IMG/VR virus record: IMGVR_UViG_3300010338_000575
Source of the DNA: a virus
Lineage: Duplodnaviria > Caudoviricetes
Reading direction: 5' to 3' (one strand)
DNA length: 64,000 nucleotides
Each line of letters opens with the position of its first letter. Position 1 is the stretch's first letter. Of the stretch, positions 659-12,557 are shown in pieces. The notes below the pieces were generated by a model. That model made no database searches. It was given only the letters and a program-made list of their open reading frames with translations, and had not been told where the DNA came from. The translations under genes were made by a program, and so were the position numbers.

Positions 659-1732
659 TTATAAATCATCACGAAAAAGTTTACTGTTTTGTGGTTTAAT
701 CATTTTCCATATAATATCATCATATGGTCGTTTATCATATAATTTAAAAAGAATTGAAGGGTATTTTGTTTTTATCGCTTCGTTAGCAAAATCTTTTCGT
801 TCTTTAATATCATTAATATGATAAATTCTAATAAATTCTTTTAACGATTTTCTTTCAATTTCATTATAATCATTAATTAAATTATTTTTTGTCTTTTTTA
901 ACCATTTATAATATTCATCGGGTACAATATTAAATAAAGCATTAAAATCATAATTGTTTTTTAAAAATTCCCATATAGTTAATGTGCTAACATTAGTTAA
1001 TATTCCGTGTAATTGAATGTATTCATTAAATTTAATTTTTACACGAAAACCATCCGAAAATTTAACAACAAAACCTTCTTTATTATTTTCTTCAAGTTTT
1101 TTTAAATCATATAAATTATTAATATCTTTAATATTTAATCTTTTAACAATTTTAAAATTGTTTGAATATTTATTAACCATTTCATCGTATTCAAATTCAA
1201 TACCAGTTCTTGTATGAATTACTGATAATAATATCAATTCTCTTGTATCACCATAATCAACAACAATACGATTTTCAGGATAAATAATTTCAAAAAGATA
1301 TGTGCAATTTTTATTCAATAAATTATAAACAGAAGCATTTAACATTTTTTTTGCTTCTATTGATTGTTTTGAAATAAAAGACCCTCTTGTTGTAACAATC
1401 CATTCCATACGTGGTTCATAATAAAAAAGTATTATTAACGAACCATCCATCTTCTCAAAAATTTCATATTTTTTTGACATGTCAATTTCTGAAGGATCAT
1501 GTTCCTCAATATTTTTAAATTTTTGAAACGGACGTGCAATAATATTACCATCTTCATCAATAACTAATCCTCTACACGATTTGGTGTAGATATCCCAAAA
1601 TTTTTTAAATTGTGCTTTGGGTGAATAATTTAATATCCACAAATTATATTCGGGATGTTTATTAATTGTAATTAAATCATTACTAATGTAATCATTTAAT
1701 ACATTCCAATCTATTTTTTCTAATATTTCCAT
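659..1732 (-). CDS. T4 Rnl1-like RNA ligase
   Basis: CRGLV, RPFQKFKN, motif I EKMDGSL, TRGSF, FEIIYPENRIVV, EGFVV, KIK. Confidence 0.9.
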   Translation of the reverse strand: MEILEKIDWNVLNDYISNDLITINKHPEYNLWILNYSPKAQFKKFWDIYTKSCRGLVIDEDGNIIARPFQKFKNIEEHDPSEIDMSKKYEIFEKMDGSLIILFYYEPRMEWIVTTRGSFISKQSIEAKKMLNASVYNLLNKNCTYLFEIIYPENRIVVDYGDTRELILLSVIHTRTGIEFEYDEMVNKYSNNFKIVKRLNIKDINNLYDLKKLEENNKEGFVVKFSDGFRVKIKFNEYIQLHGILTNVSTLTIWEFLKNNYDFNALFNIVPDEYYKWLKKTKNNLINDYNEIERKSLKEFIRIYHINDIKERKDFANEAIKTKYPSILFKLYDKRPYDDIIWKMIKPQNSKLFRDDL

Positions 1733-6389: not shown

Positions 6390-6402
6390 ATTTCAAAGAA
6401 CA
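6390..6402 (-). promoter_or_regulatory. boxA-like antitermination element
   Basis: TGTTCTTTGAAAT between the terminator and the first tRNA. Confidence 0.5.
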
Positions 6403-6412
6403 TTATAATAAC

Positions 6413-6439
6413 AAAAAAACCCGACTTTATTGTCGGGTT
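6413..6439 (-). terminator. Attenuator terminator of the Asp/Glu/Val/Leu/Ala tRNA cluster
   Basis: AACCCGAC-AATAAA-GTCGGGTT followed by a T run. Confidence 0.9.
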
Positions 6440-6463
6440 ATATTTATGAAAATATATAACATA

Positions 6464-6553
6464 TCACCCGACGAAACATAAATATGCATCATCGACTAAT
6501 AATGACCACTCCAATTTATTAAACATATGTCGAAAATTTAACATAATCATCAT
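6464..6553 (-). CDS. Putative leader peptide MMIMLNFRHMFNKLEWSLLVDDAYLCFVG
   Basis: 29-codon ORF between promoter motifs and terminator; its 3' end GTCGGGTGATAT complements the terminator 5' arm. Confidence 0.75.
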   Translation of the reverse strand: MMIMLNFRHMFNKLEWSLLVDDAYLCFVG

Positions 6554-6681
6554 TTTTGTAATAAATACGTTACAAATATAAATAATGTTACAAAATTTTG
6601 CAAATTTTTTTATAAAAAATTGAAAAATTTTTTCTTTATATCAGATAAAAAAATGATATTCAATAACTTATTAGTTTTTAT

Positions 6682-7074
6682 TTATGAAACAAACAATTCA
6701 TCATTTTCATTATAGGATATAAATTGAAATTTCATACCTAAACTTGATTCATAAAATTCCCCCTGTTCTAACATATCATCATCATCAATTGCATATCTCC
6801 AAATAACATTTAAATTATTAACATTTTCTTTACAATTTTTAATTAAATGGAATATTCTTTTATTTGAATATGTGTTCATAAAAACTAAATTAAAAATTAT
6901 TGTAATATTTTCTTTATTTACATTAAGAAATTTTTGAACTTCTTTATCTATTTTATCATAAAAATTATCACCATATTCAGGTAACGAATAACCATTTAAT
7001 ACAATAACACCCACATCATATTTAAAAATTATTTCGGGAGTATTTAACGTTCCTTCAATAATTTTCTTGTTCAT
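6682..7074 (-). CDS. SiaC family (DUF1987) protein
   Basis: TPEI...G.SLPE...FY...FMNTYS.K...V.W.Y..DDDDMLEQGE pattern. Confidence 0.8.
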   Translation of the reverse strand: MNKKIIEGTLNTPEIIFKYDVGVIVLNGYSLPEYGDNFYDKIDKEVQKFLNVNKENITIIFNLVFMNTYSNKRIFHLIKNCKENVNNLNVIWRYAIDDDDMLEQGEFYESSLGMKFQFISYNENDELFVS

Positions 7075-7215
7075 ATATTAATGATTTATTTATATAAATA
7101 GTTATGTAAATTTTTTATATAAAAACAAATAGACGTAATAATGATTTATTAATATACAACAAACCATAACAAATAATAATACTGTTGTGGTTAGAAAACG
7201 ATATTATCACAATTG

Positions 7216-7287
7216 TTGTTCTGATAAGATTCGAACTTATTCTACAACATCCAAAGTGTTGTGTGCTACCAATTACACCACAGAACA
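7216..7287 (-). tRNA. tRNA-Gln(TTG)
   Basis: TGTTCTG/CAGAACA acceptor, CAACA-CTTTGGA-TGTTG. Confidence 0.92.
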
Positions 7288-7297
7288 ATTTTATTAG

Positions 7298-7371
7298 GGT
7301 GTTTGGTGGGATTCGAACCCACGATTTCTGATTCACAATCAGATGAGTTAACCAACTACTCCACAAACACC
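7298..7371 (-). tRNA. tRNA-His(GTG)
   Basis: G-1/C73, TCTGA-TTGTGAA-TCAGA. Confidence 0.95.
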
Positions 7372-7380
7372 ATACAATTG

Positions 7381-7454
7381 TCGGGATAGCAGGACTCGAA
7401 CCTGCAACCACGTGCTCCCAAAGCACGCATACTAACCAATTGTACTATATCCCG
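7381..7454 (-). tRNA. tRNA-Pro(TGG)
   Basis: CGGGATA/TATCCCG acceptor, CGTGC-TTTGGGA-GCACG. Confidence 0.95.
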
Positions 7455-7504
7455 ATTATTTTTTTCATATACGTAATTGTTTTTTATTTGCTACAAATAA
7501 ACAT

Positions 7505-7540
7505 AAAAAAATCTCATTCGATTTTGAATGAGATTTTTTT
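7505..7540 (-). terminator. Attenuator terminator of the Pro/His/Gln tRNA cluster
   Basis: AAAAAAATCTCATTC-AAAATC-GAATGAGATTTTTTT. Confidence 0.88.
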
Positions 7541-7569
7541 ATATATTATATATAATACAACCCCATTCA

Positions 7570-7629
7570 TCATGATATATCATGATGTTGCGGTTGTGGT
7601 TGTGTCATATTATTGTAATAATTATTCAT
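7570..7629 (-). CDS. Putative leader peptide MNNYYNNMTQPQPQHHDIS
   Basis: 19-codon ORF with CAA CCA CAA CCG CAA CAT CAT; immediately followed by TGAATGGGGTT, complementary to the terminator 5' arm. Confidence 0.85.
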   Translation of the reverse strand: MNNYYNNMTQPQPQHHDIS

Positions 7630-7739
7630 TTATTTTTTTTTACAAAAATACATCATTTTTTATAAATAAATACTTTTTTTTGAAAAAAAATCATAACAAT
7701 AATAAAAAATATTGTATTTATTAATAAAAAAATATAATT

Positions 7740-9174: not shown

Positions 9175-11013
9175 TTACCAATATATTAATCTACCACCTT
9201 TATTTGTTTTAATATTGCTATATTTTTTTGAATCAACAATAACATTATTTAATATTTCGGATGAATTTAATGCAATATCATAAATTTTTAATTTTTGAAT
9301 ACCACCAATAAATGATTTATCGAAATTTTTTTCAATTAATAGATTATTTTTTCTTTCATCTTTAACCAAAATATCATTTGCGATATATTTTATCTCTTTA
9401 ATAAAGAGAGACCCATTCATATTAACACCACCATTGGTTTCGATCAATATACCAATATTTATAAATTTTTGACCAATATTATTATCAATGTTAAACACAG
9501 TTTTTATTAATTTCCATGATTTTTCACCATATACTGATTGATTGTATGAATTTTCTATATTATATGGATATGTGTATATTATTTCTGATAATATATTAAT
9601 ATCGACATCATTTGAATATGGTAATAATGATATTTTATTTATTGTGCCACCAGTAAAATAATTATCAACATATATCAATGCTTCGATTATATAATTACGA
9701 TTTGATAATATAGAAACTAATTTGTTATATCTGATGAAAATATCAGAAATGTCATTATTATTAATACGTTTAACTTCTAATACCGATACTGGTTGAATAT
9801 TATTTAAATTATTTATTGTATAAAATTTACTGTTATTTACGTTTAATGAAAAATTATCAATTTGAATATTATCATTTAATAATGGATTTTTTATTATATT
9901 AAAATTAGAATTAACGTAATCAATATCATTATTATTATATAGCAAATATGTTTTTTTACCATAATGCCATGAGTGTTTTAAACCAAAACTACCACCACCC
10001 CAACTAATTGAAAACGGAACACCTATTTGTTTTTCTTTATCGTTTGAAAATTCTTTAAAATAAAATTCAGGAAAATTAGTTAACTTCCAAAATTTTCTAC
10101 CATTAATATAAAAAATTAAATCACCATTTCTTTGAGCATCAAAATTACAATTTAACTTACTATATGGTAAATATACAATACTAATATATGTAAATCCTGT
10201 TATAGTTAACGAATTTTTTGATATATTTGAAATAACAAGACCTTCTGAATTTATATATTTAACACCAATTTTTTTATCATTAGTTATTTCAAATGCAATT
10301 ATATTGTTTTTTAAATTGTCAATTGGATCGACACATGTATGTATTGTGGTTGTTTTAAATTCTGGCTCAGGAAACGAATTCTTCAAAACTTGTTTAGCCA
10401 TTAATGCATCTAAATAGTTATTATCACTAGTAACAACACCATTAATTTCAGTAGCACCCGATTCAAATTCACCAATATAGTATGGGTTATATTTATCTTC
10501 AGCACGTGCACCTAACATTAAAAAAATTCCATTACTATTATCATAAATATTTAAAACAGTTTCAATTGTAATACCGTTTTTATATCTTGTTGGTAATATT
10601 TGATAATCATATCCATATAATTTAAAAAAACCCTGTAAATATCCACCATTTAAATCATAATAATTACCATTGATATTATCAATAATTGGTGTTATTGGTA
10701 AATAATTTGTGATAACAGTAACACCAGTAGTTTCAATATCATTAGGATTAATGACTTCATTATAACCAATTCTATCTAATCTTAATTTAGTGTCTTGTGA
10801 ATTTAAACTAACACCACTCCACATTTTATCTGTTCTACCATAATCAAATTGTGTTAATCCGAAATCATATAATTCAATATCGCTTGAATATGCACCATCC
10901 CAACTAATTAAACTAACGACACTTAAATCATTATTTAAATTCCATGATTTATCGTTTGATATGTCAATATCAACAATCAAATTGTTCATATTTTTATTAT
11001 TCATAAAATTCAT
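9175..11013 (-). CDS. Putative virion protein (LamG/ConA-like)
   Basis: FYINGR, ISWGGG, FIGGIQKLKIYD.AL...EI motifs; late motif upstream. Confidence 0.6.
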   Translation of the reverse strand: MNFMNNKNMNNLIVDIDISNDKSWNLNNDLSVVSLISWDGAYSSDIELYDFGLTQFDYGRTDKMWSGVSLNSQDTKLRLDRIGYNEVINPNDIETTGVTVITNYLPITPIIDNINGNYYDLNGGYLQGFFKLYGYDYQILPTRYKNGITIETVLNIYDNSNGIFLMLGARAEDKYNPYYIGEFESGATEINGVVTSDNNYLDALMAKQVLKNSFPEPEFKTTTIHTCVDPIDNLKNNIIAFEITNDKKIGVKYINSEGLVISNISKNSLTITGFTYISIVYLPYSKLNCNFDAQRNGDLIFYINGRKFWKLTNFPEFYFKEFSNDKEKQIGVPFSISWGGGSFGLKHSWHYGKKTYLLYNNNDIDYVNSNFNIIKNPLLNDNIQIDNFSLNVNNSKFYTINNLNNIQPVSVLEVKRINNNDISDIFIRYNKLVSILSNRNYIIEALIYVDNYFTGGTINKISLLPYSNDVDINILSEIIYTYPYNIENSYNQSVYGEKSWKLIKTVFNIDNNIGQKFINIGILIETNGGVNMNGSLFIKEIKYIANDILVKDERKNNLLIEKNFDKSFIGGIQKLKIYDIALNSSEILNNVIVDSKKYSNIKTNKGGRLIYW

Positions 11014-11777: not shown

Positions 11778-12557
11778 ATGAATAAGACTATTAATAAATA
11801 TAAAATTTCTGAGATTATAAAAGAAATTGTCGATCCCAATTTAATTGATTTATCATCGATACAACTACACGATGTGTTAAACCCAGATATTTGGGATAAA
11901 AACGATAAGATAAAACCCGACGTGAGAAAAATTTTATTAAAAAACGCAAAAAGATTTATTGAATTTTGTGATATTGAAGATTTAAAATTTGATGATATTA
12001 TTTTAACTGGTAGTCTTGCTAATTATAATTATAATGAAAATTCTGATTTGGATGTTCATATTGTTTTAAATTATTCACAAATTTCAAACAATAAAGATTT
12101 TGTTGGTGATTTTTTTAGATTAAAAAAAGAATTATGGTCATCTAAATATACAATAAAAGTTAAGGGTTTTGATGTTGAACTTTATATTCAAGACAGTAAT
12201 GAATTACATTATTCAACTGGTGTATATTCATTAATAAAAAACAAATGGGTTCGAAAACCAACTAAAAAAATAATATCAATCAATACGAATATTATAAAAC
12301 AAAAAGCATTTGATATTATGAATTCAATTGATGATTTAGAAACGAATTTAAATCGAAATGATTTTATGATAAAATACAATATGTTAAAAAATAAAATAAA
12401 AAAGTATAGACAATCTGGTTTGGAAAAAAATGGTGAATATTCAGTTGAAAATCTAGTATTTAAAATACTGCGAAATACTGGATATTTAAAAAAATTAACA
12501 GATTTAAAAAAACGTTTTTTAGAAAAAGAATTATCGTTAAATGAAATAAATTTTTGA
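11778..12557 (+). CDS. Pol beta-superfamily nucleotidyltransferase
   Basis: LTGSLANYNY...SDLDVH and third acidic residue in DVELY. Confidence 0.85.
   Translation: MNKTINKYKISEIIKEIVDPNLIDLSSIQLHDVLNPDIWDKNDKIKPDVRKILLKNAKRFIEFCDIEDLKFDDIILTGSLANYNYNENSDLDVHIVLNYSQISNNKDFVGDFFRLKKELWSSKYTIKVKGFDVELYIQDSNELHYSTGVYSLIKNKWVRKPTKKIISINTNIIKQKAFDIMNSIDDLETNLNRNDFMIKYNMLKNKIKKYRQSGLEKNGEYSVENLVFKILRNTGYLKKLTDLKKRFLEKELSLNEINF

Follow-up and report, generated by a model that had tools for sequence, protein, structure and literature searches.

The window analysed here, 64 kb of DNA from an uncultured jumbo myovirus, carries on its minus strand a unit that is very likely, to judge from its sequence, a ribosome-mediated (leader-peptide) transcription attenuator placed before a phage tRNA-Pro/His/Gln operon. 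The three tRNAs would probably be made only when ribosomes read Gln, Pro and His codons slowly, and in this particular phage they may be made regardless of the switch, given a promoter-like motif downstream of it. A preliminary description of this DNA had put forward the combination of a translated leader, an antiterminator at its stop codon, a terminator and codons matching the tRNAs; conservation, a coding signature and covariation among 37 distinct relatives, together with constrained folding, support that combination, and the same codon-matched design also stands before three other tRNA blocks.

The leader and its alternative helices

The leader open reading frame (ORF) occupies positions 7570..7629 of the minus strand and consists of 19 codons followed by a UGA stop codon (7572-7570). 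Seven consecutive codons within it (CAA CCA CAA CCG CAA CAT CAT, 7582..7602, minus strand) encode QPQPQHH, and the three genes that follow on the same strand are those for tRNA-Pro (TGG, 7380..7454), tRNA-His (GTG, 7297..7370) and tRNA-Gln (TTG, 7215..7287), each identified by both ARAGORN and Rfam. The earlier claims that this ORF contains seven Gln/Pro/His codons and that these codons are exactly the specificities of the downstream tRNAs therefore both hold. The genes that would be regulated are thus the tRNA genes themselves, which neither make nor charge the amino acids that would be sensed. A run of seven such codons was not reached in any of 200,000 shuffles of the 285-nt intergenic region, and when both strands of the 64-kb window were searched in all frames the leader's run was the longest, all others having five codons or fewer.

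Immediately 3' of the stop codon begins region 2, the 5' strand of the antiterminator (TGAATGGGGTT, 7559..7569, minus strand). It can form 11 bp, two of them G-U, with region 3 (AATCTCATTCA, 7525..7535), which is the 5' arm of an intrinsic terminator located by a terminator scan at 7544-7501 and which has as its alternative partner region 4 (7505..7519), comprising the 3' arm (7519-7511) and the U-tract (7511-7505). The best duplex of the leader with the terminator 5' arm has a predicted energy of -11.9 kcal/mol, equalled in 2 of 5000 shuffles, and the fold of the leader RNA has a z-score of -8.67 against 200 dinucleotide shuffles. Given these values and the shuffling result for the codon run, the observed leader elements are not due to chance. 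In the window, region 3 carries two C-to-U changes that are compensated in region 4 by G-to-A changes, and the two U's form the G-U pairs with an unchanged region 2, so that both helices are preserved.

A further element, region 1 (ACAACC, 7592..7597, minus strand), lies within the Gln and Pro codons and pairs with GGTTGT (7562-7557) in both the minimum free energy (MFE) and the centroid folds calculated with no ribosome present. Between these two strands lies a perfect 20-nt palindrome (7568..7587) that spans the His codons and the stop codon. This palindrome and the 11-bp pairing of the segment after the stop with the terminator arm had both been pointed out beforehand, and both were confirmed; in the predicted folds the palindrome is a component of the region 1:2 (anti-antiterminator) structure, of which it forms the inner hairpin. 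The sequence therefore holds the features by which attenuators of this class are recognized: a short leader ORF, a cluster of sensed codons, an intrinsic terminator before the regulated genes and an antiterminator that is mutually exclusive with it.

Conservation of the leader and its RNA structure

The phage is AT-rich (25% G+C over the window), and the products encoded by this fragment of its genome include a T4-type large terminase, portal, major head protein, tail sheath, Dda-like helicase and T4-type RNA ligase; ten tRNA genes are present, all on the minus strand. It is probably a phage of Bacteroidota, and we place its host there because the window's genes have no Shine-Dalgarno sequences upstream, the promoters in relatives are of the Bacteroidota type (TTTG-N17-21-TAnnTTTG), the nearest cultured phages by terminase are the Flavobacterium immuto phages (at only 28% identity), and a Bacteroidales MAG contains one homologue of a neighbouring protein of the window. 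No DNA nearly identical to the window was found among GenBank phages, nor in IMG/VR by exact pattern, and the one immuto phage examined (vB_FspM_immuto_13-6C) has three tRNAs with neither leader nor terminator upstream. A gene for a protein of the SiaC/DUF1987 family (6682-7074, minus strand, E = 1.2e-23) lies between the two tRNA blocks of the window, and is found duplicated at the same position in the relative L019. Near the tRNA region there is also the gene for the RNA ligase (659-1732, minus strand; Pfam RNA_lig_T4_1, E = 2.5e-22), which is of the T4 Rnl1 type. In T4 this ligase mends tRNA cleaved by a host anticodon nuclease, and its location here fits selection on tRNA supply.

Relatives were collected using as anchor a 612-aa protein encoded at 9175-11013, which has no match among GenBank phages and more than 560 homologues. 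An alignment of 16 of these homologues (A2) led to 80 loci from IMG/VR, many of them on contigs of 325-372 kb that are complete by CheckV. With the SiaC-like neighbour as anchor no relatives were found in IMG/VR, and with the terminase relatives were found, none of which had tRNAs within 10 kb. In most loci of sufficient reach the 612-aa gene is followed downstream by a Pro/His/Gln tRNA block, and a Q/P/H run of at least five codons together with a terminator occurs within 2.5 kb upstream of that block in 45 of 48 distinct loci, with the unit of run and terminator usually 55-270 nt from the first tRNA. The junction between this terminator and the first tRNA is occupied differently in some loci: an HNH-endonuclease-like gene precedes the first tRNA-Pro in G002/L063 (L105, about 400-1400), gaps of 380-950 nt are present in L026, L042, L048, L051, L053, L055 and L100, and tRNA-like sequences that ARAGORN missed lie directly 3' of the terminator in L027 (about 12170-12260) and L034 (about 10760-10850), one of the two with an apparently enlarged anticodon loop.

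In the relatives the leader ORF has about 24 codons, with 5-10 consecutive Gln, Pro or His codons, and homologous ORFs with an ATG and an in-frame stop are present in 35 of the 37 distinct sequences aligned. The amino acid at a given position of the run is kept in 28-30 of 31 sequences while the codons vary synonymously (CAA/CAG and all four CCN), those replacements that do occur being mostly to other members of the Q/P/H set. Entropy within the run is 0.13, 0.21 and 0.89 bits at codon positions 1, 2 and 3, respectively. Insertions and deletions in the leader are multiples of three, the distance from the ATG to region 2 is 48, 51 or 54 nt, and the stop codon lies exactly 18 nt past the start of region 2 in 28 of the 37 sequences. 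The order of Q, P and H differs among lineages and the set is retained. By these measures of sequence variation the leader ORF behaves as a coding sequence. In the closest non-identical relative (L019/L020) ATA takes the place of ATG in both leaders; those of L019 (3902-3937 and 5586-5675) are identical in L020, and their frames are open and differ synonymously from the window, which points either to AUA initiation or to loss of leader translation in that phage.

Covariation between regions 2 and 3 was scored on an alignment of the 37 distinct relatives (A3). Region 2 is conserved as GAAYGGGG, mostly read as Glu-Trp-Gly, and the terminator has CCCCRTTC and the complement of this sequence as its arms; in a distant clade the arms differ in sequence but are again complementary. 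The two regions are paired in 96.9% of cells, compared with 15-62% when the partner is slid by 1-3 columns, and three of the pairs show double changes, giving a covariation score reached by none of 500 shuffles. For one of these, a double change from U:A to C:G, a tree built from the neighbouring protein requires three or more independent origins. Pairing in the terminator helix reaches 98.3%, and six of its pairs covary. Region 1 of the relatives is CCCCA, inside Pro-Gln codons, and nearly all of the 37 predicted folds pair it with UGGGG of region 2; this helix is 88% paired and shows almost no covariation, and since region 1 hardly varies, covariation is uninformative here. The predicted folds of nearly all relatives also have, where the window has its palindrome, an analogous hairpin. 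Given the whole alignment, RNAalifold returned nothing but the terminator, and for the 5' part alone it returned no structure, since the position of the inner hairpin differs from lineage to lineage.

In equilibrium folds of the full-length leader the terminator forms every time, even with a ribosome mask, and the switch must therefore be kinetic if it operates; in classical attenuators of the enterobacterial type the full-length RNA likewise prefers the terminator. Since an equilibrium fold cannot show a kinetic switch, we folded transcripts cut after region 3, from the window and from the relative L039, with an assumed 30-nt ribosome footprint forced to be single-stranded. With no ribosome, region 1 holds region 2 in both RNAs. 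The 2:3 helix becomes the MFE structure for each of the seven Q/P/H codons of the window at which the ribosomal A site is placed, and for eight of the nine in L039, and a ribosome at the stop codon masks region 2. Folding with and without a ribosome footprint had been suggested as a check in the preliminary description; the cut transcript behaved as envisaged there, and the full-length RNA kept the terminator throughout. The accompanying proposal, that a ribosome at the stop would mask the antiterminator and one stalled on Q/P/H codons would leave it free, is thus supported as far as the modelled folds go.

The proposed switch, its promoters and other readings

We suggest that transcription begins upstream of 7629 and that the 19-codon leader is translated as it is transcribed, which assumes coupling of transcription and translation in the presumed Bacteroidota host, and that the speed of the ribosome on the leader sets the outcome. 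If decoding is fast, as when the tRNAs are plentiful, the ribosome would reach the UGA at 7572-7570 and cover region 2 (7569-7559), leaving region 3 free, so that the terminator (7541-7505) would form and RNA polymerase would halt before the tRNA genes. If decoding is slow, as when the tRNAs are scarce, the ribosome would stall on the seven codons at 7602-7582 and cover region 1, and region 2, now free, would pair with region 3; the terminator would then not form and tRNA-Pro, tRNA-His and tRNA-Gln would be transcribed. With no ribosome on the leader, region 1 and the palindrome would sequester region 2, again leading to termination. Because the output of the unit, the tRNAs, would relieve its input, slow decoding, such an arrangement would keep the supply of the three tRNAs steady, as a homeostat does. 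We infer that stalling occurs and that the signal is tRNA supply; the signal could be tRNA abundance (for example after cleavage by host nucleases), charging or a mismatch in codon usage.

The leader transcript has a candidate -7 promoter box in the window (TATTTTTG, 7643..7650, minus strand), which fits the Bacteroidota TAnnTTTG. This is a partial match, the -7 box standing alone with the -33 TTTG missing, and it would give a 5' UTR of ~7 nt; of 31 loci in relatives, 24 have the full TTTG-N17-21-TAnnTTTG at a distance of 22-46 nt 5' of the leader's ATG. A second promoter-like motif, TTGTAGC-N15-CGTAT (7469..7496, minus strand), is located between the terminator and tRNA-Pro. The warning given earlier, that a TGTAGC...CGTA element (7495-7470) downstream of the terminator might provide independent expression, was right: TTGTARC-N15-CGTAT has four matches in the window against 0.08 expected, and every copy lies 5' of a gene in the correct orientation. 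The copy at 7496-7469 is likely to be a second, attenuator-independent promoter that could bypass the switch in this phage. Because it stands between the terminator and tRNA-Pro, the attenuator would not be the sole control in the window, where the tRNAs can probably also be expressed independently of it, the attenuator being one of two routes.

The motif is found between the terminator and the first tRNA in 5-6 relatives as well, and is absent in about 20, in which the first tRNA begins 2-28 nt past the U-tract. A gap of that size leaves no room for a promoter, and transcription must therefore cross the terminator to reach the tRNAs; most relatives, as their sequences read, are without such a bypass. 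A conserved box, GTTCTTTGA(C/A)ATG.TGGAAATTT, is also located between the U-tract and the first tRNA (6390-6400 in the window), and in relatives it is found directly 5' of tRNA-Asp and of some tRNA-Pro genes; its distance from the tRNA is too short for it to act as that gene's promoter. The conserved box GTTCTTTGACATG... just 5' of some first tRNAs was considered as a promoter and rejected, since its transcript would begin within the tRNA.

The downstream motif is the starting point for a different reading of the window, in which the small ORF and terminator are an independent micro-gene or an insulator, the tRNAs are transcribed only from the 7496-7469 element and the codon match has no regulatory meaning. 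The strong over-representation of TTGTARC-N15-CGTAT, its promoter position before three other genes and its presence between terminator and tRNA-Pro in the window and those 5-6 relatives are what this account would lead one to see. It does not accommodate the roughly 20 relatives that have only the 2-28 nt gap and no motif; moreover, an antiterminator that covaries with the terminator would be needless for a stand-alone gene, and each of four leaders matches its own tRNA block, with a Trp codon that follows tRNA-Trp from block to block (see below). We consider this account quite unlikely.

It is very improbable that the unit is instead a translation-independent RNA switch, with helices that respond to a protein or, as in a T-box, to direct binding of tRNA, and with an incidental ORF. 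The conservation of the alternative structures would be expected of such a switch, and L019/L020, which have no canonical start codon, would be accounted for, but third-position variation, in-frame indels, a fixed stop position and an amino-acid set that is conserved while its order varies all argue for translation, and no T-box or other riboswitch match was found in Rfam. A last possibility grants that the leader is translated and senses decoding speed, and places the output in the processing or stability of the tRNA precursor (for example through RNase access) rather than in termination. The tRNAs need to be excised from their transcript anyway, and many relatives have the conserved box (GTTCTTTGA...) in the stretch from the terminator to the first tRNA; against this, the hairpin and U-tract are those of a canonical intrinsic terminator, conserved with covariation, and the competing helix targets exactly the 5' arm of that terminator, so we give this variant scarcely any credence. 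Transcription attenuation by a translated leader remains our preferred reading of the unit.

Four codon-matched units and known attenuators

A second attenuator of the same kind is predicted in the window at 6418-6593 (minus strand), where a 29-codon ORF (6553-6464) lies between a promoter motif (6593-6565) and a terminator (6439-6418) upstream of tRNA-Asp/Glu/Val/Leu/Ala. The ORF is rich in Leu, Glu, Trp, Val, Asp and Ala codons and ends in GTCGGGTGA, which is complementary to the 5' arm of the terminator; this unit too is conserved in relatives, and its arms covary. Each of the six complete relatives has four leader-terminator units. Their tRNA blocks comprise Pro/His/Gln; Asp/Glu/Val/Leu/Ala with Trp or Met; Lys/Tyr; and Thr/Cys/Asn/Ile/Ser/Phe/Gly/Arg. 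In each of the six genomes no other assignment of leaders to blocks scores as well as the real one when all permutations are compared, and pooled over the six, 58% of leader residues belong to the leader's own block compared with 15% in other blocks. A Trp codon is found in the second leader of those genomes that have tRNA-Trp in the second block; in two genomes the tRNA-Trp gene belongs to the fourth block instead, and there it is the fourth leader that has the Trp codon and the second that lacks it. Read from these sequences, the Trp codon that moves with tRNA-Trp is a natural swap experiment. In three of the complete relatives (L103+L104, G001; L105-L107, G002; L108-L109, G004) the last tRNA of the fourth block has the anticodon CUA, that of an amber suppressor (labelled Pyl by ARAGORN), which hints at recoding of TAG in part of these genomes.

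The tRNA genes of phages are mostly regarded as constitutive helpers for codon usage or as spares against host defences that cleave tRNA. An attenuator yielding the tRNAs for its own codons would feed back directly on decoding capacity, a use of classic attenuation that we have not found described. The arrangement is widespread, the related giant-phage contigs numbering in the hundreds, and the four units of a genome cover nearly all amino acids. It is conceivable, and we propose it only tentatively as something that may well not be the case, that the four codon-matched attenuators are an on-demand system for tRNA replacement. Stalled ribosomes would signal to each leader that a certain group of host tRNAs had been lost, either to anticodon nucleases with which the host defends itself against phages or to decay of host tRNA in the course of infection, and the leader would turn on exactly the phage block that replaces the lost tRNAs. 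If true, this would be an inducible counter-defence and a natural multiplexed sensor of tRNA availability in the cell. The attenuators also offer a way to test which tRNAs run short in infected cells, and a small natural sensor module for tRNA supply.

Among phages, the tRNA cluster of T4 is comparable in that its tRNA genes are phage-borne and expressed as a precursor transcript that is processed, and the window also has a T4-type RNA ligase gene nearby; we know of no leader peptide or attenuator for the T4 cluster. A full-text search of the literature found no description of leader-peptide control of tRNA genes, only of amino-acid genes. T-box leaders share with the phage unit a terminator/antiterminator switch that reports on the state of specific tRNAs, but they lack an ORF and make direct contact with the uncharged tRNA, and the window has no T-box match in Rfam at the gathering threshold or at E values up to 10.

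The closest likeness in design is to the enterobacterial attenuators hisL, trpL, pheL and leuL, in which regulatory codons likewise form a run within a short ORF, the 1:2, 2:3 and 3:4 helices of four RNA regions exclude one another, an intrinsic terminator stands before the regulated genes, and the stop codon is positioned so that a terminating ribosome masks region 2. Those leaders control enzymes of amino-acid biosynthesis, whereas the phage unit controls the tRNAs that read its codons, and it is phage-borne and without membership of their sequence families. The leaders of the thr operon (Thr and Ile) and of ilvGMEDA (Leu, Val and Ile) are likewise multivalent, with interspersed codons; here too the targets differ, and the likeness is one of architecture and of C/A-rich codons, not of descent. 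Window positions 7603-7502 match the Rfam model Thr_leader (RF00506) over its full length with 38.8 bits (E = 2.3e-5), below the gathering threshold of 55 bits, and the second leader matches the Trp leader model with E = 0.013, also below its gathering score; because both fall short of gathering, these matches are a likeness of design and not membership. In the pheST (pheM) attenuator of E. coli, too, a leader peptide acts on part of the translation machinery and not on an enzyme of biosynthesis. That attenuator controls an aminoacyl-tRNA synthetase and senses a single amino acid, whereas the phage unit controls tRNA genes.
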